The notes beneath the pieces were generated by a model. That model was given only the letters and a program-made list of their open reading frames with translations, searched no databases and was not told the DNA's origin. This document shows, in pieces, positions 4,760 to 42,521 of a stretch of DNA of 64,000 nt (the stretch's first letter is position 1; every line of letters starts with the position of its first letter). Both the position numbers and the translations under genes were made by a program. Source of the DNA: an uncultured archaeon. GTDB lineage: Archaea; Nanobdellota; Nanobdellia; Pacearchaeales; GW2011-AR1. The stretch spans positions 72,674 to 136,673 of the forward strand of contig CAIPOI010000008.1 in NCBI GenBank assembly GCA_903866625.1, given 5' to 3'.

Positions 4760-5563
4760 ATGATAATAAGTGAGGAATTTTTAAGTAGGCTACGAAAGAT
4801 ATTTGATTTGAATTTATATGAAGTTAAAGTCTGGGCTGCTTTACTTTCTCGCGGAATTTCTACTGCAGGAGAATTAAGTAATATTTCTGATGTTCCTCGT
4901 TCAAGAACTTATGATATTCTTGAAAGTTTGGAAAAGAAAGGATTTATTGTAATGAAGCTTGGAAAACCTATCAAGTTTGTTGCTTTAAAACCTGAAGAGG
5001 TAGTTGAAAGAGTTAAAAAAAATCTTGTTAGAGATGCTGCAGAAAAATCAAAGAGACTTGAAAAACTTAAGGACGAAGATATACTTAGAGAGTTAACAGG
5101 ATTATTTTCAGAGGGAAGCAAATTTGTTGAACCCGGTGATTTATCTGGAAGCTTGAAGGGGAGACAGAATGTTTACAATCATTTAGATATGCTTTTAAGA
5201 GAAGCAGAAAAATCAGTAATTATCGTTACAACTGCTTCTGGACTTAATAGAAAATTTGAAAATCTTGAACCAAGTTTGGCAAAAGCCCGCAAGAGAGGAG
5301 TTAGAATACAAGTTGCTGCGCCTATAACTGCTGAGAACAAGAAAATAGCTAAAGAGATAAGCAAATATGCTGAAGTCAGAGATACTGATGGATTGAAAGC
5401 AAGATTTGTTATTGTTGATAGTGAACAGTTATTATTTATGGTTCTTGATGATGATAAAGTTCATCCAAACTATGATGTTGCCCTTTGGTTAAATGCATCT
5501 TTCTTTGCTCAGGCATTAGAACAAATGTTTGAGATTGCTTGGAATAAATTCAAGAAGATTTAA
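4760..5563 (+). CDS. TrmB-family transcriptional regulator
   Basis: N-terminal winged-helix signature ..YEVKVWAALLSRGISTAGELSNISDVPRSRTYDILESLEKKGF.. followed by a TrmB-type C-terminal domain. Paralog of 37770..38549. Confidence 0.85.
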   Translation: MIISEEFLSRLRKIFDLNLYEVKVWAALLSRGISTAGELSNISDVPRSRTYDILESLEKKGFIVMKLGKPIKFVALKPEEVVERVKKNLVRDAAEKSKRLEKLKDEDILRELTGLFSEGSKFVEPGDLSGSLKGRQNVYNHLDMLLREAEKSVIIVTTASGLNRKFENLEPSLAKARKRGVRIQVAAPITAENKKIAKEISKYAEVRDTDGLKARFVIVDSEQLLFMVLDDDKVHPNYDVALWLNASFFAQALEQMFEIAWNKFKKI

Positions 5564-17908: not shown

Positions 17909-18170
17909 GTGCAGACTAGACGGCAGGTTAGCTCTCTGCCATTTGCTAGTGAGCTTTAAGCAAGTCGCAAGAAGGCAAGTGAGATTTGGGTTAAAAAGTC
18001 CTTGAATCAACGTTGAAGTTTTGTCTTCCTTGATCTTGCTTTTGCGAAATGGGTCAGATCTTGATCGAAGCAGCCCTAAACAAGAGCGTAGGTGCTTGGA
18101 AGGTAGCAGAACTGAGAAGATTTTTGGATCAACTTTTTAATTTACTTCAGGCAAACCTTTGAGTCTGCAC
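17909..18170 (+). ncRNA. Signal recognition particle RNA (7S RNA), compact ~262 nt form
   Basis: GC-enriched non-coding island. Terminal helix GUGCAGACU / AGUCUGCAC. Two adjacent hairpins: GGCAG-N9-CUGCC (17922-17940) and UUGCU-N11-AGCAA (17943-17963). Their loops are complementary (AGCUC vs GAGCU), as in Alu-domain helices 3/4. Helix-8-like GGGUCAGAUCUUGAUCGAAGCAGCCC (18051-18076) resembles E. coli 4.5S GGUCAGGUCCGGAAGGAAGCAGCC. Long complementary arms (UUAAAAAGU / ACUUUUUAA) fit helix 5. Confidence 0.7.
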
Positions 18171-28135: not shown

Positions 28136-28244
28136 AAAATAAATCACAAAATAAAAAAGGTTTATAAACGCTTTTATCCTTGATAAAATATGAAAATTGA
28201 CAACAATTTTCAATTACTCATTTAAAGAGGTTAAATTTCGTAAG

Positions 28245-30530
28245 ATGAAAAAGAAAGGTGTGATGTTAGGATTTTTTATTTTAATTAGTCTTATAATTTT
28301 TAGCAGTAGTTTTGGTTTTGTGAGTGCTTGGACAAATACTGGCGGGGGGGATCATAGTGGCCAGAATTGGATTATTTCTTCAAATACGTTTGTTGCTGGA
28401 GTTCATACTAATGTTGGGAATTTTACAATTCCTTCGGGAATAATAGTTTCGGTTAAACCCTATGATGGAACTACTTATGGTTCTTTTGAAGTTCATGCGA
28501 GTAATATTACTGTGGCTGGAACTTTAAATGCATCTGGCGCAGGTTATGGTGGCGGCGGAGGTGGCGGAGGCGGTGCAAGTGGTTGTAATTGTGTGATTTC
28601 GGGTTCAAGTTCAGGAGGTTATGGTTTTGCTGATGGTTCTAATGGTAATAGTGGTGGAGGTAGTAGATTTCAACAGGGTTGTAGTGAAAATGGAAATACT
28701 AATATTTGTGGTGGAGCTACAGCGGGTGCTGGAGGAGCGGGGGGAGGTCCTTCTGGTGGTTTTGGAGGAGCAGGTGGAACTCCCAAGAATAATTGTATAA
28801 CTACTAATGCTAATTCTCCTTGGTATGGGTCTTTGGGAGGGGATGGAAGTTCTGGAAGATATTGTAATACTTCTTCTTCAAATATAACTTCTTTATGTGA
28901 TAGTTCTAGTGATGAAACATTAAGAATGGGCTCTGGTGGTGGAGGAGCAGGCGGAGGGGGTGGCGGTCAAACTTGGTCTGGAAATATTTATAGTGGTGGA
29001 GGGGGTGGAGCTGGAAATGCAGGAGGGGGAATAATCAAACTTTATGCAGATAATAATATTTCAGTGATTGGAAATATTTATTCTTTTGGTAATAATGCGG
29101 GCAGTGGTAATGGTGCTACTGGTCGTAATGGTAATTTAGAATCTGGAGGTCAATATCAATCTAGACCTGGGGGGGCAGGAGGAAATGCTTCATATTCTGG
29201 TTCTAGTTCAGGAGGTTATGGGCAGGGTTCTGGAGGTTCTGGGGGTCCTGGAGCAGGCGGAGGAATTTTATTAAAGGCTCAAGTTGTAAAAATTACTGGA
29301 ACAATAAATAATGCTGGAAGAACAACTTCTGCTAAAGATTATGGCGGAACTTTTAAGGTATTTACTTGCCCTAATGAATTTAATCTTGCTCTGTCAGGAA
29401 CTAATTATGTTCAAACAGGTAGAAATTATACTAGCACATTTACTTGTACAGCTCCTGTTGTTCCAACGATAGTTAGTTCTTCTTGGAATGCCTCTGCAAT
29501 TACTTTGATTGATAGTGTTAAACTTACTGCTGTTGGAAGCGACTTAAGTGGAAATTTTAAATTTGATATTTTTAATCTTGAAAAAACTCTTATTAATACT
29601 AATACCTTGCAAGCATTTAATAGCACTCAAGCAAATATGACTTGGAGTCCTACTACTATTGGAACTTATTTCTTTAATGTCACTTTAATTTCTTCAGGAC
29701 AGGTTTTAACTTCAGGACAACTTATCGTTTCTTTGGCAACAAGAACACAAAATTGCGATCTTTCTAGCGTGGATAATTCTTTACCTGCTAATGCAGTTTG
29801 GAATGATTACAGTAATGGAGTGTTTACTCAAACTTATGATTCAAGTAATGTTTGGACTCCAACAACTTACTCTGCAAACTATAACTTAACTCAGGGGATA
29901 TGTAATTTTAAATGTAAAAATTCTAGTTATGAATGGAATGGTTCTGCTTGTAATTTAGTTCAGAAATATATTAACTTTTGCTGGGATTTAACTACTCAAA
30001 AGAGTTGTGAAGATGCTTCTCAAAAGATTGCTAAAAATAGTATTGGCGGAGTTTTGGGTAGTTATTGTGGAAAGACCGATATAAAGCTAGATAATTGTTA
30101 CTATAGTGCTTCTTGTAGTTGTGTTTGGATTATTAATGAAAGCAATTCTAATGGTGGAACTTGTACTAATGAGTCTATTTATTATACTAAAAATAGTGGT
30201 CAAACTTCTTGTAGTGCCGAAAATTTCTTATGTAAAATTTCCTCAAATGTAGATAATAGTGGTTGTAGTTCTAATTTAGATACTATCACTGTTAATCAAA
30301 ATGCTTTGTGGTCTGGAAGTTCTTCGATAGCAGAACAGGCCGCATGTAAAACCTCAACTCAAACTTTTGCTTGTCCTGCTAGTTATAAACTTAGTTTTAG
30401 TTCAGATATTGGTTTGATTCTTCTTGTGCTTGTAATTATTTTTATTTACATATTTGCTCTTAAAAAGAAAAATAAAGTTTCAGAAGAGATTTTAAAGATT
30501 GGACACCTAAAAAAAATTAAGAAAAAATAG
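28245..30530 (+). CDS. Glycine-rich surface protein with C-terminal TM anchor (putative beta-helical adhesin)
   Basis: Signal peptide MKKKGVMLGFFILISLIIFSSSFGFVSA (start chosen at the first ATG; the track ORF starts at TTG 28197). About 350 aa of GGxGG tracts are interrupted by short beta-strand-like segments (ITVAGTLNASG, GGIIKLYADNNISVIGNIYSFG, GGILLKAQVVKITGTINNAG). Cys-rich C-terminal half, TM, Lys-rich tail. Confidence 0.75.
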   Translation: MKKKGVMLGFFILISLIIFSSSFGFVSAWTNTGGGDHSGQNWIISSNTFVAGVHTNVGNFTIPSGIIVSVKPYDGTTYGSFEVHASNITVAGTLNASGAGYGGGGGGGGGASGCNCVISGSSSGGYGFADGSNGNSGGGSRFQQGCSENGNTNICGGATAGAGGAGGGPSGGFGGAGGTPKNNCITTNANSPWYGSLGGDGSSGRYCNTSSSNITSLCDSSSDETLRMGSGGGGAGGGGGGQTWSGNIYSGGGGGAGNAGGGIIKLYADNNISVIGNIYSFGNNAGSGNGATGRNGNLESGGQYQSRPGGAGGNASYSGSSSGGYGQGSGGSGGPGAGGGILLKAQVVKITGTINNAGRTTSAKDYGGTFKVFTCPNEFNLALSGTNYVQTGRNYTSTFTCTAPVVPTIVSSSWNASAITLIDSVKLTAVGSDLSGNFKFDIFNLEKTLINTNTLQAFNSTQANMTWSPTTIGTYFFNVTLISSGQVLTSGQLIVSLATRTQNCDLSSVDNSLPANAVWNDYSNGVFTQTYDSSNVWTPTTYSANYNLTQGICNFKCKNSSYEWNGSACNLVQKYINFCWDLTTQKSCEDASQKIAKNSIGGVLGSYCGKTDIKLDNCYYSASCSCVWIINESNSNGGTCTNESIYYTKNSGQTSCSAENFLCKISSNVDNSGCSSNLDTITVNQNALWSGSSSIAEQAACKTSTQTFACPASYKLSFSSDIGLILLVLVIIFIYIFALKKKNKVSEEILKIGHLKKIKKK
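28540..29270 (+). repeat. Low-complexity GGN-codon tracts (coding poly-Gly), local GC spike
   Basis: Runs such as GGTGGCGGCGGAGGTGGCGGAGGCGGT. In frame within the CDS. Confidence 0.8.
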
Positions 30531-30577
30531 TTTAATTATCACTTCATTATCATCTATAAAAGAGGAAAAAAGAGATT

Positions 30578-33355
30578 ATGCCTAATATGAGAACTCGATT
30601 GAATTTTATTTCATTAGTTTTTGTATTCTTAATTCTATTATTTATTTTTTCTTTTTCTTTAGTTTCTGCTTTTTCTAGTAACAATGTTGGAAAGATAGAT
30701 AATATGAGTTTTTCGAGCTATGTACCAAACCAAACAGATTATTCCCCTGGAGAGAATATTAAGGGCAGTGTTAATATAAGTCTTAATTCCGAATCTTCAA
30801 ATTCTTCTATAGATTTTTATTCTGGCACAAAAAAACTTAGTTCAATGAATTTATTAGATTTTTTAGTCAATTCAGGTTTATCAACTGGTTCAGGTATATA
30901 TTTTTGTAACCCCTCTAGTTGCGAGGATAGTTATTCTAGTTCAGATAGCGGAGAAACTATCAAAAGTTTTTCCTTAACTAGCGGAAAAAACCTAACTTTA
31001 GGTATTAAACTTACCTCAAATCCCAAGACAGGAGTTACAGGAATAAATAATTTTACAATAAATATTTCTTCTGATGCTGTGGAAAGTTGTTCGGTTCCAT
31101 TAAAAATAGAAATCCCTGAAGGGGGATTATCGTTTATGCCCTCTACAGTTGGAAATAGTTATTGCACTCCAGAGAATTATGCTTGTTTTGGGTTCACTAA
31201 CTCTCAGCAGATAAATATTTTATCGGATGCAAAATACTGCTCAATTATTTCAGTAAACTCTGGGGCGGCTATTGATGTTGGCGCAGATTTGGTAGGGGAT
31301 GGTGCAGCACAGTTTCAGTTTAGCATAGATAGTAAATCTTGTTTAGCTAATTTTACCTCTTCTCAAACAGGTCAAGCTAAGGCAATTTGTAGAATTGATA
31401 AAGCCATAGTTGAGCCAACAAATTTAACTCTTTGTATGACTAAAAAAAGTGGAGGAACTTATAATATTTTTTATAGAGATAGTGATGATTGTGCTTCTAT
31501 TCAAAGGCCTTCTGAGGAAGCAACTCTCGGAGGATTATCTTTATTTATCAAACCCTTAAATTATGCTTCTCCAGGGGCATTAATAATTAATTCAACTTCA
31601 AATCCTTCTATACTTAGTGGAATTAAAAGTTATTTATCTGATAATTATGATTCTAATTGTTCGCTTGGATGTTTTGTTCCTATTAAATTTTCTTCTAATA
31701 GTGTTCAAAATTTACAACTATCTAAGTTTAATTTAAGTTATAATGCAGGTACTTCAAATGCAAATCTTATTTATGAACTCAAGAAAGTGAATCCTACTAT
31801 TACTATGAATTTTACTAAATTTAATCTTGATAGTTCTGGTTTTATTGTTCCTTCCACACCAGGGAATTATACTTTATATCTCAAGTTAAATGGAGTTAAT
31901 TTTTATAAGAATACCCTAAATGTTTTAGATGTTCCTTCTGTAGTAGATATTTTTCCTAAAGAGGTTCCAGCTGGTGTAAAATTCAAAATAAATGTTCTAA
32001 GTAATAATAGCGAAGGGATTGTAGAAAAATATGTTTTTAATTTTAGTGATGGTAATAGCTCATTTGAAACTTCTGTTCCTTATGTAGAACATACTTTTAA
32101 AACAACAGGTAGCTATGCAGTTAGTATCTATGCAATTAGCACAATAGGGCAGTCTGCTTTGAAAACATTTAGTATTGTTGCTTCTTCCCCTGGAGATTAT
32201 ATTAATTCTACACTTAAAACTGAAAAATTAAAACTTGAGACACTTAAATCTAAATTAAATCTTCTTCCAGCAGTTGTTAAATCTGCTCTGGAAACTAAAC
32301 TTAATATCACTGCTGTTTCTGATCAACTTACTTCCTTAGGTATAGATTATAACACCTCATCAGGTAGTGATGAAGAAGAAATAAGAATAGCTGGAGAATT
32401 AAGTGCTATAACTTTGCCTGATTCAATTAATATCACTAAAAGTGCTAGTGGAAAATTCTTGTTTGATAGTAAGAAGATAACTTTAGAAGATTTAAATGCC
32501 GCTTCAGGAGAAGATTTTGGAACTAATCTTGGAATGGTTCAAAATGCAATCTTTGGTTGGTATATTGAAAATTTAAATAGCGATGCAAACATTGAGGAAT
32601 ACTCAGCAATTTATGATAAAACTAGTATGATCCTCGGATCTTATGTTAATCTTAAACTAACTCCTAAAAGTGATATCAATGATTTATTTGGGGTTATAAA
32701 TTCTTTATCCATGCAAGGAATATTGGATACAAAACCAACTTCTGCAGGAAAAAGTTTTTCCTTATCCCCTTTATCTGCGAATTCTGTTAAGAATATAGAG
32801 TTTTTTATAAATGAACAAACTGATTTAATTAACCTTCCAATATACTTTTTTCCAGCTAAGAGTCAACTTGTTTTAGTTGATAAAATAGGGATTTGTAATT
32901 ATAATAGTATTTGTGAATCTTCTCGCGGAGAAAACAATAGTAACTGCAATTATGATTGTAAACCCTGGAGTAAAATAATTTTGGCTTGGATTATAGTTCT
33001 CATTGTTTTTTTTATTGTTTACATAGTTGCTCAAGAATGGTATAAACGTCATTATGAGGGTAGTTTATTTAAGAATAGTGATGATTTGTACAATATGATT
33101 AATTTTATTGATAATGCTACTAAGCAGAATTTAGATAAATCTAAGATTTTTACAAATTTAAAGGAAAAATCTTGGAGCTCTGAGCAAATAGAATATGCTT
33201 ATAGAAAATATCTCGGAAAAAGAACTGGGATGTTTGAAATACCTTTATTCAAATTTTTTGAGAATCGTAAAGTCGAGAAAGAAATTGGTTTGAGGAAATA
33301 CGTTCCTAACCAAAATATTGCACCCAAGCCGTCAATAAACTTTTCAAATAGCTAA
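30578..33355 (+). CDS. Large surface protein with PKD-like domain, single TM and ~130-aa cytoplasmic tail
   Basis: Signal peptide ..ILLFIFSFSLVSA. PKD-like ..YVFNFSDGNSSFETSVPYVEHTFKTTGSYAVSIYAIS... Cys-rich stalk CNYNSICESS..CNYDC. TM WIIVLIVFFIVYIV, then a helical tail. Confidence 0.8.
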   Translation: MPNMRTRLNFISLVFVFLILLFIFSFSLVSAFSSNNVGKIDNMSFSSYVPNQTDYSPGENIKGSVNISLNSESSNSSIDFYSGTKKLSSMNLLDFLVNSGLSTGSGIYFCNPSSCEDSYSSSDSGETIKSFSLTSGKNLTLGIKLTSNPKTGVTGINNFTINISSDAVESCSVPLKIEIPEGGLSFMPSTVGNSYCTPENYACFGFTNSQQINILSDAKYCSIISVNSGAAIDVGADLVGDGAAQFQFSIDSKSCLANFTSSQTGQAKAICRIDKAIVEPTNLTLCMTKKSGGTYNIFYRDSDDCASIQRPSEEATLGGLSLFIKPLNYASPGALIINSTSNPSILSGIKSYLSDNYDSNCSLGCFVPIKFSSNSVQNLQLSKFNLSYNAGTSNANLIYELKKVNPTITMNFTKFNLDSSGFIVPSTPGNYTLYLKLNGVNFYKNTLNVLDVPSVVDIFPKEVPAGVKFKINVLSNNSEGIVEKYVFNFSDGNSSFETSVPYVEHTFKTTGSYAVSIYAISTIGQSALKTFSIVASSPGDYINSTLKTEKLKLETLKSKLNLLPAVVKSALETKLNITAVSDQLTSLGIDYNTSSGSDEEEIRIAGELSAITLPDSINITKSASGKFLFDSKKITLEDLNAASGEDFGTNLGMVQNAIFGWYIENLNSDANIEEYSAIYDKTSMILGSYVNLKLTPKSDINDLFGVINSLSMQGILDTKPTSAGKSFSLSPLSANSVKNIEFFINEQTDLINLPIYFFPAKSQLVLVDKIGICNYNSICESSRGENNSNCNYDCKPWSKIILAWIIVLIVFFIVYIVAQEWYKRHYEGSLFKNSDDLYNMINFIDNATKQNLDKSKIFTNLKEKSWSSEQIEYAYRKYLGKRTGMFEIPLFKFFENRKVEKEIGLRKYVPNQNIAPKPSINFSNS

Positions 33356-34127: not shown

Positions 34128-34337
34128 ATGAAAAGTTGGTTGAAGGGGGGAATTATTGGGTTGATAATCTCAATAGTTTTATCTGCTCTAATTATGTTTA
34201 CTCCTATGTTGGGTTCAGATTATCGTTATGGCTATCAGATCTCATTTATTCCATTTATTATCCTAGTATTTGTCGTTTTTGGATTAATCATTGGTGCGGT
34301 AGTTGGTAAAATTAAATCTAGAAATGATGCAAACTAA
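34128..34337 (+). CDS. Small two-TM membrane protein (69 aa)
   Basis: Two hydrophobic helices. GGAGG-like sequence upstream (AAGGGAGGAAAAG). Confidence 0.5.
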   Translation: MKSWLKGGIIGLIISIVLSALIMFTPMLGSDYRYGYQISFIPFIILVFVVFGLIIGAVVGKIKSRNDAN

Positions 34338-34341
34338 AAAA

Positions 34342-34749
34342 ATGAGCAAGAATAAAAATAAATCTAAGCATGAAGCATTAACCCTGCAGTTTATACCATT
34401 TTCAGAGATTGAAAAATTGGATTCTACTGCAAGAATAAGAAAATTATTGGAAATCGTTCTTAATAATAAAATCATCGTTATACAGGGAAAGTTAAGGGCA
34501 GAAGAAGAAACAAGGCTTATTGAGGATACTATGGTTATGGTTGGTAAGGTTAAAGGGTTTAGGGGTATAGAGCTTGCGGTTGTAAGCCCTAATGCTAAAG
34601 AAAGAGATTTTATGAGTAAGGTAAAGCATGGTATTGCTAATGCTCTTGTTGGACAAACAGACTCGCTTACCATAATTGGTCCGGCTGCTATTATTAAGGA
34701 TATGAAGCGAGATCCTAGAAAGCTTGAAGTTATGATGAGTGGAAGATAA
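34342..34749 (+). CDS. Conserved archaeal protein, DUF2073-like (start uncertain: 34303/34324/34342)
   Basis: ..LTLQFIPFSEIEKLDSTARIRKLLEIVLNNKIIVIQGKLRAEEETRLIEDTM.. matches my memory of the DUF2073 family, which accompanies a GTPase and a Zn-ribbon protein in archaea. Unverified. Confidence 0.55.
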   Translation: MSKNKNKSKHEALTLQFIPFSEIEKLDSTARIRKLLEIVLNNKIIVIQGKLRAEEETRLIEDTMVMVGKVKGFRGIELAVVSPNAKERDFMSKVKHGIANALVGQTDSLTIIGPAAIIKDMKRDPRKLEVMMSGR

Positions 34750-35096
34750 ATTTATATAAGATATAACAACACTCGCCTCACTAAAGTTCGGCTCGCTTAT
34801 TACCTGCTCACTTAACTGCACAAGTTCGTTAAGTTCGCTAATTCTTCTTGATAATTGATATCCTCTAATTGCGAAACAGCTATTTAGATAGTTATTTTAT
34901 TCTTTCTCGTAAAGTTTTATAAACTTGGCTTTTCTTGAGATAGTATAAAAATAGGTTAATATCTATGGGGCAATAACATTCCAATGAAATTCCGAAAAAT
35001 AAATACGAGGTATACTATTAATTAGTATTTTTCAAAATTCTGATGTCATCCCCCAATTCATATATAAGAATTAAATTAATCATGCTAAATTGAAAG

Positions 35097-35603
35097 ATGC
35101 CACACCAATGCGTACACTGTTCGAAATTATATCCTGATGCTGCTAAAGAATTGTTGATTGGATGCACTTGTGGCAGCCATTTCTTTTATTATATTAAAAA
35201 AGAATATTATGACAAACTTAATAGCCAAATTTTAAACGAAGTTAAGAATGGCGTAGATAAAGATGTTGATTTAGCTGAAATACAAGAAATCCAAAAGAAA
35301 ATCCATCAAATCGATAAAATGGATAAACTTAAAATAGAAAAGGATGTTCGTGAAATTATTGGCATAGGTGAGAAAGAAGATATCCCAGTTATACTTGATT
35401 TAGAATCTATAAGGGTATTGAAACCAGGCAAATTTGAGATTGATGTTGTAAATCTTTTTAGTAAGAAAAGACCTCTGATATACAAACTTGAGGAAGGCAG
35501 GTACATAATTGATTTAGCTAGTACACTTAGGGTTAATGCCCATGAATTAGAAAGCAAAATAAGAGATCCAGAACAATTAAAGAAGCGAAAAAGAAAGAGA
35601 TAA
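35097..35603 (+). CDS. Zn-ribbon protein, DUF2072-like
   Basis: MPHQCVHCSKLYPDAAKELLIGCTCGSHFFYY.. N-terminal zinc ribbon followed by a charged helical region. TATA-like TATATAAG about 32 nt upstream. Confidence 0.6.
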   Translation: MPHQCVHCSKLYPDAAKELLIGCTCGSHFFYYIKKEYYDKLNSQILNEVKNGVDKDVDLAEIQEIQKKIHQIDKMDKLKIEKDVREIIGIGEKEDIPVILDLESIRVLKPGKFEIDVVNLFSKKRPLIYKLEEGRYIIDLASTLRVNAHELESKIRDPEQLKKRKRKR

Positions 35604-35608
35604 TCTCT

Positions 35609-36880
35609 ATGAATAAATTAACTTCTTTATTAAATCTTGAATTGAATAAGATAAGTCTTACTAAAGAGGAAAATCTTATCTTAAAGAAAGAAACCGCTTT
35701 GCTGATTAAAGAATTAAATAACAGTATTAAAAGAGTCAAGATAAAAGCTCAAGTTTTTGTTGGGGGAAGTTTTGCTAAAAATACAATTATAAAAAAAGAT
35801 AAGTATGATATAGATTTATTTGTTAGGTTTAATTCAAGTTATGATGAAGAGCAGATATCAAAACTTATAGCTAAAATTATTCCAAAAAAAGCTCAAAGAG
35901 TGCATGGTTCTAGGGATTATTTTGTTCTAAAATCTAATAATCAAGAGATTAATCTCGAATTTGAGATTATCCCTGTTTTGAGTATTAAAAAACCTGAGCA
36001 AGCTAGAAATATAACTGATTTAAGTTACTTTCATGTAAAATATGTTGTTAATAAAATAAAAAAGATTCCTAGACTTGCTGAAGAGATAAAGTTAACAAAG
36101 GCTTTTTTGCATTTTCAGGAGTGTTATGGTGCTGAAAGTTATATTAGGGGTATTTCAGGATATGCGGTGGAATTATTAATTATAAATTTTGGTAGTTTTG
36201 AAAAATTTCTTAAGGGAATTATTAAAACTAAACAAGATAAAAAATTGATTATTGATAGTGAAAGATTATATTCTAAAGGGCAAGTTTTAAGAGAATTAAA
36301 TGAAGCTAAGCTGCAATCTCCAATAATCCTCATAGATCCAACTTTTAAAGATAGGAATGCTCTTGCTTCTTTATCTCAACAAACTTTTGATAAACTGAGA
36401 GATTCTGCCCAAAAGTTTCTAAAAAATCCTAGCGAAGATTTTTTTGTTAAGAAAGATAAGGAAAGAGATTTTGAAGGAAGTAATAATAATATTGTTAAAC
36501 TTGAAATAAAAACAGATAGACAAGCAGGAGATATAGCTGGAACTAAGCTAAAGAAGTTTTATAAGTTTTTTATAGATGAAAGTTCAAGATTTTTAGATAT
36601 GAGCGGTAGTGAATTTATTTATGATGAAAAACATAATTTTGCCAAAATTTTAATAAATCCTAGTTCGAAAAAGGAAATATTTTTTCAAGGTCCACCCCTA
36701 ATTATGAAAGAGGCATTTGAAAAATTTAAAAAAGAGCATAAAAATATTCAGATAAAAGATGGAAAGAGTTTTGCTTATGAAAAAGGATTTTCAAGTTTTA
36801 AGGAATTTTTAAGTTTCTTTAAGAACAATAATTCTAATAAAATAAAGAGTATGGGTATAGTTAGTTTTGAGTTGGTCTAG
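35609..36880 (+). CDS. cca: CCA-adding tRNA nucleotidyltransferase (archaeal class I)
   Basis: ..VFVGGSFAKNTIIKKDKYDIDLFVRF.. (GS..DxD catalytic motif) and ..RGISGYAVELLI... 423 aa. Consistent with the tRNA-Leu lacking an encoded CCA. Confidence 0.9.
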   Translation: MNKLTSLLNLELNKISLTKEENLILKKETALLIKELNNSIKRVKIKAQVFVGGSFAKNTIIKKDKYDIDLFVRFNSSYDEEQISKLIAKIIPKKAQRVHGSRDYFVLKSNNQEINLEFEIIPVLSIKKPEQARNITDLSYFHVKYVVNKIKKIPRLAEEIKLTKAFLHFQECYGAESYIRGISGYAVELLIINFGSFEKFLKGIIKTKQDKKLIIDSERLYSKGQVLRELNEAKLQSPIILIDPTFKDRNALASLSQQTFDKLRDSAQKFLKNPSEDFFVKKDKERDFEGSNNNIVKLEIKTDRQAGDIAGTKLKKFYKFFIDESSRFLDMSGSEFIYDEKHNFAKILINPSSKKEIFFQGPPLIMKEAFEKFKKEHKNIQIKDGKSFAYEKGFSSFKEFLSFFKNNNSNKIKSMGIVSFELV

Positions 36881-37535
36881 GACAGATGCTTTTTATTGGT
36901 CCGGTCAAAATATTTGTTTGGCCTGTTAACTGATACTGTTCTTTTGTAAATACTACAAATAGTCTTTTATTTATTGTTGGAGGTAATCCCATTCTTTCTA
37001 TTAATTTTATTGTTTCCTCTATATTTTTTAATTCCTGTACTGCTTTTATTGTTCCTTTAGCTTCTGATGGTATGCCTGCCAAAGCCAAAACTTTAAAACC
37101 CTCGTAATCAGGGTTGCCATGAAAAATATATTCATTTTCACCTGTTTGCTTATTTAATTCTGGTAAGACCATATACTTTTTATCCGAAGTACTTGTTTCA
37201 AAAACTAAACCACTAACCTCCTGTAGATTAAATGGATCAAAAGCTAAGACTATTTTATCAAGCCCAACTGGGCTTGCGTTTAGATTTGCAGTTTTAGAAC
37301 CAAGATTAGTTGCTACTTGAAACTTTGCCCTATTACTCATATATAGCGAGCCTTGTTCATGATCCAGAAAATCAACATAACCCCTGGCCCGGGATTTATC
37401 TGTTAATTTTAAATTAAGTCTTTGAAATTCAAATCTCTTTGGTTGAACGTGTATCAGAGAACTTAAAACAGGTATTACTGTACTTTTTTCAAAAGGAATT
37501 TGTACAAGAGATTCGAAAAGTGTATTATAACTCAT
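36861..37535 (-). CDS. Hypothetical protein G (224 aa from ATG MSYNTLFESL..)
   Basis: The longer track ORF would overlap the upstream gene. ATG 37535 is 1 nt after the upstream stop. 3' end overlaps the cca 3' end by 20 nt. No motif recognised. Confidence 0.55.
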   Translation of the reverse strand: MSYNTLFESLVQIPFEKSTVIPVLSSLIHVQPKRFEFQRLNLKLTDKSRARGYVDFLDHEQGSLYMSNRAKFQVATNLGSKTANLNASPVGLDKIVLAFDPFNLQEVSGLVFETSTSDKKYMVLPELNKQTGENEYIFHGNPDYEGFKVLALAGIPSEAKGTIKAVQELKNIEETIKLIERMGLPPTINKRLFVVFTKEQYQLTGQTNILTGPIKSICPRPTQN

Positions 37536-37536
37536 T

Positions 37537-37767
37537 TTAGAATCCTTCTTGATAATTTTTATTAGTATAGATTGGTAAAATATTCCCTTTTGAATCTGTT
37601 TGGGGTCCAAGAGTTGTTTGTTCGAGTTTAGATTGATTAAGTTTTTCTCTGATGAATTCACAACTTGTAATTCCAATTCCTGCTAAAAATGTTCCGGCAA
37701 GCAAAGCAATACCTGCTATTTTAAATGCTTCTCTCATCGTAGAATAATTTATAGAAACTTCTGGCAT
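37537..37767 (-). CDS. Small single-pass membrane protein F (76 aa, MPEVSINYSTMREAFKIAGIALLAGTFLAGIGI..)
   Basis: One TM. ATG is 2 nt after the TrmB-like stop. Confidence 0.5.
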   Translation of the reverse strand: MPEVSINYSTMREAFKIAGIALLAGTFLAGIGITSCEFIREKLNQSKLEQTTLGPQTDSKGNILPIYTNKNYQEGF

Positions 37768-37769
37768 TT

Positions 37770-38549
37770 TTAATCCTCCCAAATTTGATTGAATAAATAA
37801 ACTAAAGCATTTGTAAAGAAAGGGGTGTTTAACCAGATTGCAGTTTCTTCTTCTGAACCATTTCCTTCTGCGAGCATAAACATTATTTGCTCTTGGTCTA
37901 CTATAAAGAACTTTGTATTAATCTCTATTTGTTTTATTTTTTCTTTTATTTTTATGCTAAGCTTTTTTATATCGCTTTCATTTCCAGAAAGAGCAATTCT
38001 AACTTTTATTCCATGTTTTTTTACTTTTTCAATTAAACCGGTGAATAATCTCAGCTTTTCTGTGAAATCCTTTGCTGATGTACAGATTATAATTTCTTTT
38101 CTTGCATTTTCCATAACCTCTCTTATATGGTTGTAAATCATAGATCTTCCTTTTATTGCTCCTGATAAATCCTCGTGTTTAACAGGTTTTATTCCTGTAT
38201 TATAAAGTCCTTCTATTTCAGAATATTCTGGAGAATCTCTTAATTTTGAGAGAACTTTTACTTTTTCTTCTGCTTCTTTAACCATGTTATTTTTAAGCTT
38301 TTCAAGTATAACTGAAGGTTTTACTGCTATATATTTTGCAGGTTTGCCTATTTTTGAGATTGTGAAGCCTTGTTTTTCTAAGCTTTCAAGAACATCATAA
38401 GTTCTGCTTCTTGGAACTCCAGATATTTCTGCAATTTCTCCTGCACTTGCAACTCCCTTTCCAAGCAAAGCTATCCAAACTTTTGTTTCATAAATATTAA
38501 GGTTAAAGTAATCCTTAATTTTTTTAACGAGTTCTGGTTTTATGATCAT
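37770..38549 (-). CDS. TrmB-family transcriptional regulator (second copy)
   Basis: ..YETKVWIALLGKGVASAGEIAEISGVPRSRTYDVLESLEKQGF... Roughly half the residues are identical to 4760..5563 over the N-terminal domain by eye. Confidence 0.85.
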   Translation of the reverse strand: MIIKPELVKKIKDYFNLNIYETKVWIALLGKGVASAGEIAEISGVPRSRTYDVLESLEKQGFTISKIGKPAKYIAVKPSVILEKLKNNMVKEAEEKVKVLSKLRDSPEYSEIEGLYNTGIKPVKHEDLSGAIKGRSMIYNHIREVMENARKEIIICTSAKDFTEKLRLFTGLIEKVKKHGIKVRIALSGNESDIKKLSIKIKEKIKQIEINTKFFIVDQEQIMFMLAEGNGSEEETAIWLNTPFFTNALVYLFNQIWED

Positions 38550-38552
38550 GTT

Positions 38553-39170
38553 TTATTGTGTTCCTTCTGATTTACTTTTAACTCTTATTGCGTCTTGTAA
38601 TCCGATTATTTGTAATTCCAATATTGTTTTTTCTAAATCCTTGGGATTTCCTGTCCATAAGCTTACATCAACCGTCGCATTCATTTTAAGATGAGGATTC
38701 TTTGTTCTATCTAAATCTTTCGCTTTTGGAATTTCTATGAATCTATAAGTTGGCCCGAATCTTACTCCATCTTCTTCATGGAAATTAACATAACTTCTCG
38801 CTCTTAGTTCATTAGTTACAAACGCGTATTCTGGGTGATTAGGTGAATTACTTATTTTTAGTGGGCTTCTTCCATCGGCTGCTTTTTCTAATACTCTTGA
38901 AAGTTCTGTTATTCCCTTTTGACTTTTTCCTCTTATTAAAATGTCTAAATCATTATAATCTTGAATTCCATCGAAAATCCAGCTTTTTGGGGCCGAACCT
39001 CCAAGATAACCTCTAAAGGCAGCTCCGTTTACAGCTAAATATTCACAAACTTTCTCAAAGAAAGGAAGGTCTCCTTGTTTTACCATGTGGCTTATTGGAC
39101 TTAAACTTGTTAAACAGAATTGCATCAAAGGGGAATATTTTCCTTCAATTATTAATGAGTTTCTTTCCAT
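38553..39170 (-). CDS. Pol-beta-superfamily nucleotidyltransferase-like protein D (205 aa from MERNSL..)
   Basis: ..RGYLGGSAPKSWIFDGIQDYNDLDILIRGK.. fits the hG[GS]-x(9-14)-DhDh motif. A later ..NATVDVSLW.. could supply the third carboxylate. No database comparison was possible. Confidence 0.45.
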   Translation of the reverse strand: MERNSLIIEGKYSPLMQFCLTSLSPISHMVKQGDLPFFEKVCEYLAVNGAAFRGYLGGSAPKSWIFDGIQDYNDLDILIRGKSQKGITELSRVLEKAADGRSPLKISNSPNHPEYAFVTNELRARSYVNFHEEDGVRFGPTYRFIEIPKAKDLDRTKNPHLKMNATVDVSLWTGNPKDLEKTILELQIIGLQDAIRVKSKSEGTQ

Positions 39171-39174
39171 GTTA

Positions 39175-39534
39175 TTATTGTGCTCCTGATTGTTCTGCTT
39201 TTTCCCAAGATGGATTTTCAATTCTTATTCCATCTTTTGTTATTTCTGGTCCAGATATATATCTAACTTTTGGAGAATATGCCCAAGTATTTGTAGTTCC
39301 ATTATTGTAGATAATTCTAACATCGTTTGATTTTGGATTATTGCTGAAATTTCCTACTTCTACACTTCTAATTTGTCTGGCCTTTTCAGATTCTTCTTTA
39401 GCTTTTCCGATTAAATATCCAATTCCGCCACTTGCTGCTAAAACTAAACTAAGTACGACTGCTATACTCCCGTACATATTATCCTTTATTTTTAATGGTG
39501 GTGAATAGGGCGGTAATTGTTTCATTTTAAGCAT
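39175..39534 (-). CDS. Small single-pass membrane protein C (119 aa; alternative start 39525)
   Basis: ..MYGSIAVVLSLVLAASGGIGYLIG.. TM followed by a ~75-aa beta-rich domain. Confidence 0.5.
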   Translation of the reverse strand: MLKMKQLPPYSPPLKIKDNMYGSIAVVLSLVLAASGGIGYLIGKAKEESEKARQIRSVEVGNFSNNPKSNDVRIIYNNGTTNTWAYSPKVRYISGPEITKDGIRIENPSWEKAEQSGAQ

Positions 39535-40054
39535 TCACTGGTTTTCTTTGTTTAATTTCAATGGGTTTTAGAATCATGCCGAGTTCTGCTAGTTGAAATA
39601 GATGTAATTTTTCTGTGGCTTCATTATATGTTGAGCAGTTACCGATGGTAGCATTTAGATGTTTTGAAGTTATAACTGTTTGTAATGCTCCAAATATTCT
39701 TTCTTGCTTAATTTTTGTGTTTGTCCATAATTCCTCGTCTAAGCAACTATCTAATAGATTTTTAAAAGTATATCTGGAAAGAATAGCTTTTAATTTTTCT
39801 GATTCTTCGTCCTGAGTAAGATATCTATCTAATGGTCTTGGTGAAGTTGAACCTAATCCTGAAACTAATAGCATTCTGTAAAGTGTAGGTCTTGTTCTTG
39901 CTGAGAAACTTGATTTTAAACCCTTCTCAGGATTATAATCCTCTACTGGTGCACTTAAAGAAGTTAATTCTGTATGTGCAAATGAACCTGGAACTAGCTT
40001 TTCTAATTGATATACTACTCTTGTTATTGTTCTGGGTTGTGTTTGTTTTGTCAT
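39527..40054 (-). CDS. Hypothetical protein B (175 aa)
   Basis: Intact ORF, 9 nt after the upstream stop. No motif recognised. Weak resemblance to 1287..1715 (TLYR..SEKL..DS[LC]L). Confidence 0.55.
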   Translation of the reverse strand: MTKQTQPRTITRVVYQLEKLVPGSFAHTELTSLSAPVEDYNPEKGLKSSFSARTRPTLYRMLLVSGLGSTSPRPLDRYLTQDEESEKLKAILSRYTFKNLLDSCLDEELWTNTKIKQERIFGALQTVITSKHLNATIGNCSTYNEATEKLHLFQLAELGMILKPIEIKQRKPVNA

Positions 40055-40063
40055 GTTATTATT

Positions 40064-40408
40064 TTATTTTTTGCAATTTAGATTTAATTCAAAGGAATCT
40101 ACGTTTCCTCTTAGGATTCCGCCAATGTTATCATAAAGTAATCTAAGTTCTCCATCAACATCTGTTCTAGCCAGAACTAATGCTCTATAGGCTTCATCAG
40201 ATTTTATTCTTAGAGAAGTATCAATTAATCTTGATTGTAAGCTTGAGTTTACCCAACGAACAACTGATTCTACTCTTGCTTGAGATTGGGAATTTTTAGT
40301 TTGTTCATTAACTCCGCCGTTATGATATCCTTGCATGTAAGATAGCACGCCTACTGCAACTACTGCAAGAAATCTTGGCATATTTTTTATTTTTATTAGT
40401 TCTTTCAT
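40064..40408 (-). CDS. Small signal/TM-anchored protein A (114 aa from MKELIKIKNMPRFLAVVAVGVLS..)
   Basis: Start chosen downstream of the TATA-like CATTTATAAACC (minus strand, 40441-40452). The longer track ORF would run through the divergent promoter region and into 40525..40881. Confidence 0.5.
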   Translation of the reverse strand: MKELIKIKNMPRFLAVVAVGVLSYMQGYHNGGVNEQTKNSQSQARVESVVRWVNSSLQSRLIDTSLRIKSDEAYRALVLARTDVDGELRLLYDNIGGILRGNVDSFELNLNCKK

Positions 40409-40440
40409 GGTGATTTTTACTACTTCTCTTAGATTAAGGG

Positions 40441-40503
40441 GTTTATAAATGTTTCTTTTTTGTTGTATCTTGATAGTGACAACTAAACCAGAAGGTTTAA
40501 ATA
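40441..40503. promoter_or_regulatory. Divergent promoter region: two TATA-like boxes
   Basis: GTTTATAAAT (40441-40450, read on the minus strand) and TTTAAATA (40496-40503, 25 nt before ATG 40525). Confidence 0.45.
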
Positions 40504-40524
40504 ACCTCTTTAATAGAGTATGGT

Positions 40525-40881
40525 ATGGCAAATGAAAATGAAAATCAACAAGGAGAGCCTGATCAAGGTTTTCGTTGGCAAGGTTATGTTGGCAAGGAGA
40601 TAACACTAAATTTTAGAGATTCTAGTCATTCAGGAGTTATGGGTGCTCCAAATTTTAAAGGAAGATATATTGATTTAAAACCCTGTGTTATGTACGAATT
40701 CGATGGCGAAACTGCTTATCTATCTCAGCAACCCCTGAGAATTTCCTTTGATTTAATCCAGGGCGATAGAGTTACTATCTTGGCTCATAAGGAAGGGTAT
40801 CTTGAAGCAAGAGTTAAAGTAGCAAATGAACTTGTTGCTAAGAGAAAACAAAATAAACTTGGATTTAACCCCTCTAGCTAA
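40525..40881 (+). CDS. Hypothetical protein H (118 aa), possibly a small beta-barrel
   Basis: ..VGKEITLNFRDSSHSGVMGAP..YIDLKPCVMYEF..RISFDLIQGDRVTIL.. is loosely Sm-like. Very tentative. Confidence 0.5.
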   Translation: MANENENQQGEPDQGFRWQGYVGKEITLNFRDSSHSGVMGAPNFKGRYIDLKPCVMYEFDGETAYLSQQPLRISFDLIQGDRVTILAHKEGYLEARVKVANELVAKRKQNKLGFNPSS

Positions 40882-40888
40882 TAATAAC

Positions 40889-41080
40889 ATGCTAACTCAA
40901 ATGGACTTTGATATGACCTCAAAACCTAGAATATATACTAGTAAAACTCCTCGAGCAGATTATTTTATAATGAGTTCTCCTTGTCCTTTTATTCCTTTAG
41001 TAGTTAATCCTCGTTTTACTAAACCTGCTTTTGATACATTACATGGAAAGGAAATAACTGATGTAGGAGTTTGGAAATGA
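40889..41080 (+). CDS. Hypothetical protein I (63 aa from ATG)
   Basis: ATG is 8 nt after the H stop. Its stop overlaps the next ATG (ATGA). Confidence 0.4.
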   Translation: MLTQMDFDMTSKPRIYTSKTPRADYFIMSSPCPFIPLVVNPRFTKPAFDTLHGKEITDVGVWK

Positions 41081-41439
41081 TATTTTCTGGAAGATCTACT
41101 CCCAATAATTTTAAAGTTTTATTTTTAGAGGATTTAACTTCTAAAGAGAGAAGAAGAACTCCTAATACTTGCTGTGATATGGGTAATATAAGAATTGATA
41201 TGACCACTATGGATTATGCTTCTGTGCAAGATGTTTTAGCTAGTTTGCCTGAAGGCAGTTTTTGGGATGATAAGCAAGAAAAATTTCTGAAAATGAAGGT
41301 TAAAGATTATCAACCTCCAGTTAGAATTCCTTTTATTCCTCCAAAAGTTGAATCTCCAGTTAGTTCTGGAGTTAAACTTCCACCACCTCTTCCTAAAACT
41401 TATCCTACTAAAGGTAAGCCTTATTTCTTAGGATTATAA
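41077..41439 (+). CDS. Hypothetical protein J (120 aa) with Pro-rich tail
   Basis: ATGA overlap with I. C-terminus ..YQPPVRIPFIPPKVESPVSSGVKLPPPLPKTYPTKGKP... Confidence 0.45.
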   Translation: MIFSGRSTPNNFKVLFLEDLTSKERRRTPNTCCDMGNIRIDMTTMDYASVQDVLASLPEGSFWDDKQEKFLKMKVKDYQPPVRIPFIPPKVESPVSSGVKLPPPLPKTYPTKGKPYFLGL

Positions 41440-41442
41440 TTT

Positions 41443-42321
41443 TTATATTAAAAATATTTTAGAAATAGCCATCCCTATTAAAATTCCTGTTGTTAGATAG
41501 GGCATAGCAGGATAAGATTTATTCTTTTTTCCAAAAGTATACAAATATAATAGGGCTAGTGAAGCAAATAAGATTACTACTAAACTTCCTACGAAGCTTT
41601 GATAGGTTTTCAAGAAAACACCTGCGGCGATAATTGAGAATACAATGTCTCCTCCGCCCAGAATAGCTAATTGTATTTTTATCTTGTTCTTTTTTAAGAT
41701 CTTATCTGGAATATTATTTTTATATTTCTGCTTTAATAATCTTATTTTTTCTTTTATTTTTTTGTTTGCATGAGCTATTAAAAATCCTCCAAAAATTCCT
41801 AAGGTATTAATTTGATATTTTGCCATTTTTACCATAATCTTTGATTTCCAAACTGCCCACATATCATAAACAGAGATAATCAATAGAAGGATTATTGTTA
41901 TCTTTATATTTAACATCGTTACAAATAGTGCGGCAATTCCTGGATAGACCATCACTTCAGTAATATTATGAATTAATATGTTCATTCTAAAAATTTTAAA
42001 ATAAGAAAAAATAACCCCTATTATTAATGCGATTATTGTTGGAGCAATTATAAACGAGTATATTGATAACATTGCATTCATAGAGACTGCAATAGCTAAA
42101 CTGACTACGACAAAGAACCACAACTTCATAAAAAATTCAGATCGAATTTTCATAAGCATGAGAATAATTACTACTGTTATAATGAATGAGAATATCAACT
42201 GAATTAAGAAACTTGCTGGCTGGATTGTTTTTGAACTATCAAATCCGTATGGAAGAATATGATTTGGATTTAGATAAAAATTAACTACAGCTAAACCAAG
42301 TAATTGAGTTAAAATAAACAT
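41443..42321 (-). CDS. Presenilin/signal-peptide-peptidase homolog (A22 GxGD intramembrane aspartyl protease)
   Basis: Polytopic. YD motif (..ISVYDMWAVW..), GxGD motif (..LAILGGGDIVFS..), PAL-like motif (..YPAMPYL..), with a basic loop between the two Asp helices. Start set at ATG 42321; the track uses TTG 42327. Confidence 0.75.
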   Translation of the reverse strand: MFILTQLLGLAVVNFYLNPNHILPYGFDSSKTIQPASFLIQLIFSFIITVVIILMLMKIRSEFFMKLWFFVVVSLAIAVSMNAMLSIYSFIIAPTIIALIIGVIFSYFKIFRMNILIHNITEVMVYPGIAALFVTMLNIKITIILLLIISVYDMWAVWKSKIMVKMAKYQINTLGIFGGFLIAHANKKIKEKIRLLKQKYKNNIPDKILKKNKIKIQLAILGGGDIVFSIIAAGVFLKTYQSFVGSLVVILFASLALLYLYTFGKKNKSYPAMPYLTTGILIGMAISKIFLI

Positions 42322-42521
42322 TCCCAAGAGAATTCCGGTTACTTTTATATTGTTTTTAATATTATTTTTCCCTCTTTGATTATTATATTGTTTTTAGGGT
42401 TTTAAAACTATTCTTTTGGATTTGTATTTTATAATCTATAGATTTTACTTAATTTGCACTTCGTGTTATTCTTATTAATATTCAAGAACTAAAAATCTGT
42501 TGGATGGTTGAGAATTCCGCT

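Follow-up and report, generated by a model that had tools for sequence, protein, structure and literature searches.

Does a run of ten uncharacterized genes in the genome of an uncultured archaeon encode one undescribed system, or is it a conserved frame in which unrelated genes have lodged? The question is raised by a block of genes at 36861..41439 in a 64,000-nucleotide stretch of DNA from a member of the Pacearchaeales (contig CAIPOI010000008.1, positions 72,674 to 136,673; 'the window' denotes this entire 64-kb stretch, and the positions of genes A to J are given in its coordinates). The block lies between the gene for the CCA-adding tRNA nucleotidyltransferase (cca) and the gene for a presenilin/signal-peptide-peptidase homolog (SPP), and its ten genes were put forward in a preliminary description as a candidate for one undescribed system, possibly of signalling or defence. 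The comparative evidence speaks otherwise: the A–J set recurs in none of the 71 related loci collected for this analysis. The block is probably a conserved regulator operon, that of the TrmBL2-like gene E, which carries lineage-specific passenger genes, and not a ten-gene system.

The backbone of the locus, apparently inherited vertically across the Pacearchaeota/Woesearchaeota-type DPANN archaea, would consist of cca, which points toward the block, E in the reverse orientation, SPP, and, ahead of the E operon, a bidirectional promoter that also drives a divergent gene (here, H). Three places in this backbone would be hot spots of turnover, namely, the leader–E interval of the operon, the E–cca interval and the stretch from the divergent gene to SPP. 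Each lineage would fill these slots with different short, tightly packed genes, nearly all without known domains; in the present genome, A–D (1.9 kb) would be lodged between the leader and E, F and G after E, and I and J after H. The features of the locus are as follows.

35609..36880, plus strand: cca, CCA-adding tRNA nucleotidyltransferase (Pfam tRNA_NucTransf2 and NTP_transf_2); left anchor of the locus
36861..37535, minus strand: G, 224 amino acids (aa), soluble; small clade-restricted family
37537..37767, minus strand: F, 76-aa orphan with one clear membrane helix
37770..38549, minus strand: E, 259 aa, TrmBL2-like DNA-binding protein; conserved core gene
38553..39170, minus strand: D, 205-aa orphan, soluble, with a Pol-beta nucleotidyltransferase-like motif
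39175..39534, minus strand: C, 119-aa orphan (100 aa if Met20 is the start) with one strong membrane helix
39527..40054, minus strand: B, 175-aa orphan, soluble, basic (pI 9.2)
40064..40408, minus strand: A, 114-aa orphan (105 aa if Met10 is the start); hydrophobic stretch at the N terminus
40409..40524, no strand: predicted bidirectional promoter of the E operon and H, from a 33-locus alignment
40525..40881, plus strand: H, 118 aa, soluble; clade-restricted family divergent from the E operon
40889..41080, plus strand: I, 63-aa orphan (84 aa from 40826 according to gene callers)
41077..41439, plus strand: J, 120-aa orphan; the C-terminal third is proline-rich
41443..42327, minus strand: SPP, presenilin/signal-peptide-peptidase homolog (Pfam SPP, weak); right anchor of the locus

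A conserved frame with variable slots

The related loci come from two scans. A scan of the GTDB representative genomes with cca yielded 28 loci, nearly all labelled Pacearchaeota, Woesearchaeota or Nanoarchaeota, with cca identity of at most 52%; a metagenome scan with E yielded 43 loci, with E identity of 41–94%. The genes cca, E and SPP are found by tblastn in the same order and orientation in ~50 Pacearchaeota/Woesearchaeota loci. Orthologs of E (41–94% identical) lie between cca and SPP in 62 related loci, and orthologs of cca (41–63% identical) and of SPP (37–68% identical) each adjoin E in ~40 loci. In the relatives where E is ~85% identical over the full length (up to 94% over partial matches), the identity is 55–63% for cca and 68% for SPP. 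Judging by these comparisons, no other gene of the neighbourhood is conserved as well as E, which was apparently inherited vertically and has kept its place between cca and SPP across the order. Thus, E, which had been described as the embedded regulator of a local system, appears instead to be a core gene that occupies the same place order-wide.

The space between these genes varies broadly. The cca–E gap ranges from 13 to 3594 bp among the relatives (895 bp in the window) and the E–SPP gap from 75 to 3671 bp (2896 bp in the window); in several genomes (L015, L016, L061), cca, E and SPP are directly adjacent. Many relatives possess small co-directional genes, 1–4 before E and 1–12 after it, some of which encode small membrane proteins. 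The open reading frames (ORFs) of both slots and of the co-directional chains around E were pooled and clustered: A, B, C, D, F and J each stand alone, and I is also without a match. A Pfam domain is present in only ~5 of the 93 slot proteins of the relatives that are at least 95 aa long. Some small families (clusters 3 and 17) precede E in one genome and follow it in another, which fits shuffling. No homolog of A, B, C, D, F, I or J was detected in the 71 related loci. Conservation of gene order had been named beforehand as the observation that would decide against a single system if it failed; the order is not conserved in any relative, and among the ten block genes, the only recurring linkages are those between E and G and between H and the E operon.

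The passengers would have come by replacement or insertion between conserved flanks, and not by divergence of ancestral genes, because the relatives with E ~85% identical carry unrelated genes, or none, in these positions. The alternative is that A–D, F, I and J are ancestral genes of the E operon that have diverged very rapidly, that is, an ancient accessory set of the TrmBL2-like protein that has become unrecognizable. The small co-directional genes around E in many relatives are in line with such a history, as are the drift of the G family to 14–27% identity and the recurrence of one short sequence where E, genes upstream of it, and B, D and I of the window begin (see below). Against it, ~15 loci have no gene at all between the leader and E, the numbers and lengths of the genes differ freely among loci, the relatives with the most similar E share nothing detectable with A–D, and profile iteration on the pooled neighbours ties none of them to A–D, F, I or J. 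For proteins this short, rapid divergence of ancestral accessory genes retains a small probability; it would fit poorly with the many genomes that are gene-less in these positions, and we consider it unlikely.

An order-wide promoter and leader

Where the operon begins is marked by the A/H spacer (40409..40524, 116 bp), from which, as reported earlier, two tight operons diverge and which contains two archaeal TATA boxes. The box of H, TTTAAATA, is a perfect archaeal consensus at 40496..40503 and begins 29 nt before the ATG of H; the box of the E operon is the palindromic TTTATAAA at 40442..40449 and begins 41 nt before the ATG of A. Like boxes at like distances precede other window genes. In an alignment of 33 loci, a module of ~100 nt is common to all, with the consensus tTTtAAA..GTtgTCAcT....Aaa.AcAACAaAA..TTTATAAA..(about 17 nt)..AGTAGTAAA, which reads, in order, as the TATA box of the divergent gene, a GTtgTCAcT/AcAACAaAA element, the TATA box of the E operon, ~17 nt, and the leader. 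In the window, the leader AGTAGTAAA is located at 40416..40424 (minus strand) and the operator-like element GTCACT-N8-ACAAC at 40462..40480 (minus strand), each occurring only once in the 64 kb. The element lies between the divergent TATA boxes and is partly palindromic (TTGT...ACAA). On the strength of this alignment, the A/H spacer is apparently the ancestral, order-wide bidirectional promoter of the E operon, and the conserved element between its TATA boxes is a candidate operator for E.

The same alignment locates the main slot. In ~15 of the 33 loci, the ATG of E lies 29–82 nt past the TATA box, directly after the leader; in ~18, genes are interposed between the leader and E (245–1900 nt), the load of the window being the largest (1900 nt, four genes). 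The leader before A in the window (AGTAGTAAAAATCACC, followed by ATG) nearly equals the leader before E itself in L046 (ATTAGTAAAAATCACC, followed by ATG). It is this likeness, together with the 33-locus module, that places A–D between the ancestral leader and E, with A in the first position after the leader. No TATA box is seen within 45 nt upstream of the ATG of E, and therefore, E is probably expressed by read-through across A–D, with the consequence that the passengers would be co-expressed with E. The entire series A-B-C-D-E-F-G would form one transcript that starts near 40424, and E would repress its own promoter through the operator-like element. Autorepression is common among TrmB-family proteins.

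The possibility that the first nine codons of A derive from the 5' end of E was considered and rejected, the alignment score ranking 9th among 50 gene starts. A scan for bacterial promoters and terminators gave counts equal to those in shuffled sequences; its models are bacterial and uninformative for an archaeon.

Gene E and its TrmBL2 relatives

The identification of E as a second TrmB-family regulator is correct, as the window encodes a 41%-identical full-length paralog of 267 aa at 4760..5563 (plus strand). The winged-helix domain of E (residues 15–78) matches Pfam TrmB (PF01978) with an E-value of 2.1e-17 (63 bits, cut-off 25.6), and the effector-domain N-terminal family PF11495 is matched with an E-value of 2.4e-12 over profile positions 5–130 of 233. 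The protein aligns end to end with the TrmBL2 of Thermococcales (TK0471/PF0496; structures 5BPD, 5BQT and 5BOX; E-value 2e-22, residues 4–258 against 3–259 of 264), is of nearly the same length (259 versus 264 aa), and has the same domain order, a winged helix followed by a truncated TrmB effector domain. TrmBL2 has been described as a chromosomal protein and global transcriptional repressor (PMC3031468). The NCBIfam TrmBL2 equivalog cut-off is, however, far from being reached (86.3 bits versus 530), so that E is best described as TrmBL2-like rather than TrmBL2, a distant relative that is not an ortholog by the NCBIfam standard, and the genome contains a second copy. To our knowledge, a conserved module with its own promoter and variable co-transcribed passenger genes has not been described for TrmBL2.

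The two families linked to E

The G family consists of ~10 members, all located downstream of an E ortholog and on the same strand, including those found independently of context (P0005 and P0006), with identity of 14–27%. An exhaustive HMMER scan of 1.84 billion representatives yielded just three true, distant relatives of G, and in all three, the gene follows a 259-aa TrmB gene and precedes a convergent cca; in the window, cca is likewise convergent with G and overlaps its end by 20 nt. G has no match in Pfam, and none in the PDB even with the G-family profile. An AlphaFold model built with six family members has a predicted local distance difference test score (pLDDT) of 44.7, and with this low-confidence model, Foldseek finds no match below an E-value of 0.6.

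The H family is represented in 6 loci according to ORF clustering, always divergent from the E operon and between this operon and SPP. Homologs that are 20–36% identical occupy the same position and orientation in L004, L029, L038, L040 and L043, and there is in addition a tblastn match just upstream of E in L069. H has no Pfam match. The H-family profile gave only gamma-adaptin ear matches in the PDB, with an E-value of ~0.008; they are weak and were set aside as probable chance. Another family, of ~160 aa with an N-terminal hydrophobic segment, holds the position of H, opposite to E in the E–SPP slot, in twelve other loci (L005, L006, L010, L018, L029, L037, L041, L048, L053–L055 and L074); the window lacks it. 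G and H may be accessory partners or targets of E, given their conserved position with respect to it.

The most loaded slot was observed in L026 (11116..14645, minus strand), where twelve tight small genes (55–202 aa) lie between cca and the E ortholog, among them four genes with N-terminal hydrophobic segments and two G-family paralogs.

Genuine genes of native composition

Are the remaining genes of the block genes at all? All ten ORFs are found at the coordinates originally assigned, each with an ATG start, and the tight packing described for both strands is confirmed. On the minus strand, A/B are separated by a 9-nt gap, B/C overlap by 8 nt, and the gaps are 4 nt for C/D, 3 nt for D/E, 2 nt for E/F and 1 nt for F/G; on the plus strand, H/I are 7 nt apart and I/J share an ATGA overlap. 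F is preceded by GGAGGA. With a codon-usage log-odds measure trained on 33 long window genes, each of the ten ORFs scores positively in its annotated frame and in no other, and the G+C content at third codon positions (GC3) is 0.13–0.23, compared with 0.197 +/- 0.024 for the 33 long genes. By these two measures, the ten ORFs are real, compositionally native coding regions. Open frames of 114–224 codons are, moreover, very unlikely to arise by chance: by our own estimate, at 31% G+C, ~0.078 of random codons are stops, which gives ~7e-7 for 175 codons. Gene I is the least certain of the ten, with gene callers preferring an 84-aa version that starts at 40826.

The reported deficit of Lys, Asn and Ile in the block proteins has the right direction and a modest size (K 7.9 versus 9.1%, N 5.5 versus 7.1% and I 6.3 versus 8.8%), and it is accompanied by a surplus of Pro (5.9 versus 3.1%) and Arg (5.0 versus 3.0%), with Gln also raised. 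A composition that is slightly off, together with strain-specific orphans that are short and tightly packed like the cargo of archaeal viruses and plasmids, could suggest that a mobile element, such as a virus or plasmid, integrated beside E and left a remnant. This origin is highly improbable. GC3 and codon usage are native, as shown above; there is no integrase, replication or capsid gene, and PHROGs yields nothing below an E-value of 0.001; no relatives of B, D or the H family were found among viral contigs or phage records; no flanking direct repeats or tRNA target are present; and the orphans are split over three slots in a conserved operon frame rather than forming a contiguous insert. 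One further observation could be read in favor of a mobile element. The contig L001 (3 kb, assembly ERZ18643896) is identical to the window over its positions 1–121 (39402–39522 of the window), up to inside gene C, and departs just past the membrane helix of C into unrelated sequence that is open in frame with C (KSSYELLNAQEFGRKTTIVLGPHSGYHGVMSRAKELGIEI...). The break reflects either a chimeric assembly or structural variation in the slot.

Seven orphans

The seven genes A, B, C, D, F, I and J found no match in the scanned libraries or among the 71 related loci. Nine of the ten proteins, that is, all but E, lack a match in Pfam, NCBIfam, PADLOC and PHROGs, as anticipated; in PADLOC-DB v2, these nine have nothing below an E-value of 0.007, and E matches only through its generic helix-turn-helix (CasR/Csa3 models, 2e-5). 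Clusters at 90% identity contain one or two members per protein, from the same population only: where a second member exists, it is the same sequence with another start codon or a fragment of it, and the cluster of F has one member. Further collections were searched with B, D, G and H; B gave no family, PDB or viral match.

Three small membrane proteins had been noted among the ten. The helices of C and F are clear, with 19-residue Kyte–Doolittle maxima of 2.24 (residues 24–42) and 1.89 (residues ~15–37), respectively, whereas that of A (LIKIKNMPRFLAVVAVGVL) is weak (1.46), and this stretch may be a signal peptide or a weak anchor rather than a membrane helix. A, C and F could be small envelope-anchored or secreted proteins. 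These three, each directly upstream of one of the soluble B, D and G, do not form duplicated modules with them: no significant pair exists among A/C/F or among B/D/G (D–G, E-value 0.16).

A possible nucleotidyltransferase

The motif that had been noticed in D is present and fairly specific; the Pol-beta fold proposed on its basis is not confirmed by profile or structural evidence. The motif consists of GGS at residues 57–59, 14 residues, and DLD at 74–76, with a VDV further on (166–168); in its extended form, LGGS-x14-DLDI at residues 56–77, it resembles the active site of the neighbouring cca, VGGS-x11-DIDL. In ~210,000 ORF residues, the corresponding pattern hits all the cca, one 161-aa ORF similar to minimal nucleotidyltransferases (MNT), one probable false positive, and D. 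An hhalign comparison of D with an alignment of 16 cca sequences superimposes residues 53–99 of D on 49–93 of cca with the motif in register (P = 0.019, 2.4% probability), compared with P of 0.25–0.29 for the controls B and G.

As in the MNT (Pfam NTP_transf_2), the hGGS-spacer-DhDh motif of D is preceded by a long predicted helix, and the length of ~200 aa is within the size range of small nucleotidyltransferases. The differences are that the spacer of D is 14 residues, compared with 11 in every cca of the data set (the hGGS-DhDh spacer usually comprises ~9–13 residues), that profile and PDB matches are lacking, and that the third carboxylate has only candidates (E114, E121, E146 and D167). 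D has no match in Pfam, NCBIfam or PADLOC at an E-value of up to 1, no PDB sequence match at up to 10, and no viral match, and in an index of 5.8 billion proteins, it finds only itself. The AlphaFold model from the single sequence is unusable (pLDDT 38), and Foldseek returns nothing below an E-value of 0.7. D is thus a candidate for a very divergent minimal nucleotidyltransferase; that it is a Pol-beta nucleotidyltransferase is a serious possibility toward which the balance leans slightly less than away from it.

One rival reading centers on D. In a new defence or signalling module, D would make or transfer a nucleotide signal, effector or sensor roles would fall to the membrane proteins A, C and F, B and G would be partners, and local regulation would be the task of E. 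The specificity of the D motif and its register with the cca active site agree with this scheme, as does the alternation of membrane and soluble genes, and a fast-evolving, strain-specific gene set is the expected product of an arms race. Several of the results already given run counter to it: the absence of PADLOC matches in the nine proteins, the status of E as a conserved core gene rather than a system-specific regulator, and the lack of paralogy among A/C/F or B/D/G. D, in addition to lacking family and structure matches, has no match to SMODS (PF18144, cGAS/DncV-like; the CD-NTase domain, which in CBASS-like nucleotide signalling accompanies an effector), the sole weak SMODS flag of the region being on the housekeeping cca, and no HEPN-type partner was noticed on reading the sequences, although no formal search for one was made. 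Because the set recurs in no genome, nothing shows that the block genes work together. A module of this kind appears improbable.

Junctions at the gene starts

If passengers were inserted, their boundaries could have retained a trace. The 12-mer AATAATAACATG has exactly three copies in the window (39168..39179 and 40052..40063 on the minus strand, and 40880..40891 on the plus strand), all at start codons (those of D, B and I), and TAAC precedes the ATG in none of the 42 other genes. The 11-mer ATAATAACATG occurs 7 times in 684 kb of related loci, and each of the 7 copies marks a gene start, that of E, of its immediate upstream neighbour, or of B, D or I in the window; the copies in relatives are at ~5729 in L004, ~5788 in L040, and ~1436 and ~1671 in L043. 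The recurrent junction is AATAATAAC followed by ATG. The 11-mer resembles the 3' end of the E-operon leader (AGTAGTAATAATAAC, followed by ATG, in L040 and L043). Across the loci, the enrichment of the junction at slot genes is modest (p = 0.02–0.03), and pairwise junction similarity is borderline. The interpretation of the motif as a cassette signature was for this reason dropped, and the motif is retained as an observation with no mechanism attached.

A separate likeness, statistically borderline, was noticed between the sequences before the ATG of D and of E, GGAGCACAATAATAAC and GGAACACAATAAAAC, respectively (38553–39221 and 38549–38600); on account of it, C and D end alike (SGAQ-stop and EGTQ-stop). 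This likeness could be a footprint of the insertion of D.

An islet or a capture platform?

The locus is a small flexible region between conserved genes, and what makes it special is that a conserved leader and the conserved regulator gene have other genes lodged between them. Flexible genomic islets or hypervariable regions bounded by core genes are a general concept of prokaryotic pangenomics, and the locus resembles them in its conserved flanks (cca, E, promoter and SPP) and its lineage-specific, mostly unannotated content; mobility genes are unneeded if exchange uses homologous flanks. The locus differs from such islets in that its slots are very small (0–3.7 kb) and of native composition, and lie inside or right after a conserved regulator operon, between leader and start codon. 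A literature search on genomic islands of Pacearchaeota found nothing relevant.

There is also an architectural, and only architectural, resemblance to integron-type gene-cassette platforms: a fixed promoter and leader, variable captured genes, the newest presumably promoter-proximal, and a short junction at several gene starts. In a bolder version, the TrmBL2-like operon would be a dedicated platform for gene capture and expression, in which new genes are inserted between the fixed promoter/leader and the regulator, each keeping a leader-derived AATAATAAC before its ATG, and are expressed under the control of the regulator in these host-dependent archaea. The captured set, with A, C and F as small membrane proteins and D as a possible minimal nucleotidyltransferase, would then be a fast-evolving envelope, host-interaction or defence module. 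Compared with the integron platforms, the locus has no integrase and no attC-like structured repeats, and the junction enrichment is modest (p ~0.02); we regard a dedicated platform as a long shot.

The preferred reading, a conserved regulator operon with lineage-specific passengers, has its own weak points. The operon structure and the dependence of E on the promoter before A are deduced from the distances between genes and from the missing TATA box in front of E, and the operator role of the conserved element, along with binding by E, is a candidate assignment drawn from sequence. For proteins as short as these, very fast divergence may have taken the place of replacement. All public copies of the locus, on contigs of three public assemblies, are 100% identical to the window and so offer no variation from which to gauge selection on the orphans. 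Finally, genomes this divergent also differ at other places in what lies between conserved anchors, and 'hot spot' is a relative statement, turnover having been followed at this locus alone.

Neighbouring features of the window

Upstream of cca, the window encodes products that match Pfam OapB and OapC, and the OapC–cca adjacency is kept in most relatives. The OapB/OapC genes and then the genes for two very large proteins (~760–780 and 925 aa) are located at 34284..35603 and 28197..33355; the 925-aa protein has weak PKD-domain matches, and both are probable surface proteins. The signal recognition particle (SRP) RNA at 17911..18168 (plus strand) is picked up by the bacterial large SRP model (62.5 bits, cut-off 60) and not by an archaeal model, in contrast to the archaeal identity of the genome that is apparent from its relatives.

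Implications

The first implication is that a false lead is withdrawn: mining the block for a ten-gene defence or signalling system is not warranted. The locus offers several handles. The first is a defined promoter with an operator-like element for a DPANN regulator; the second consists of the G and H families, for which the fixed linkage to the regulator E is the sole known property; and the third is a natural series of genomes with 0–4 genes between the leader and the regulator, in which gene gain and expression can be followed. For the biology of these archaea, the finding means that lineage-specific 'dark' genes of very small DPANN genomes probably gather in and around a conserved TrmBL2-like operon that appears to be served by an order-wide promoter.

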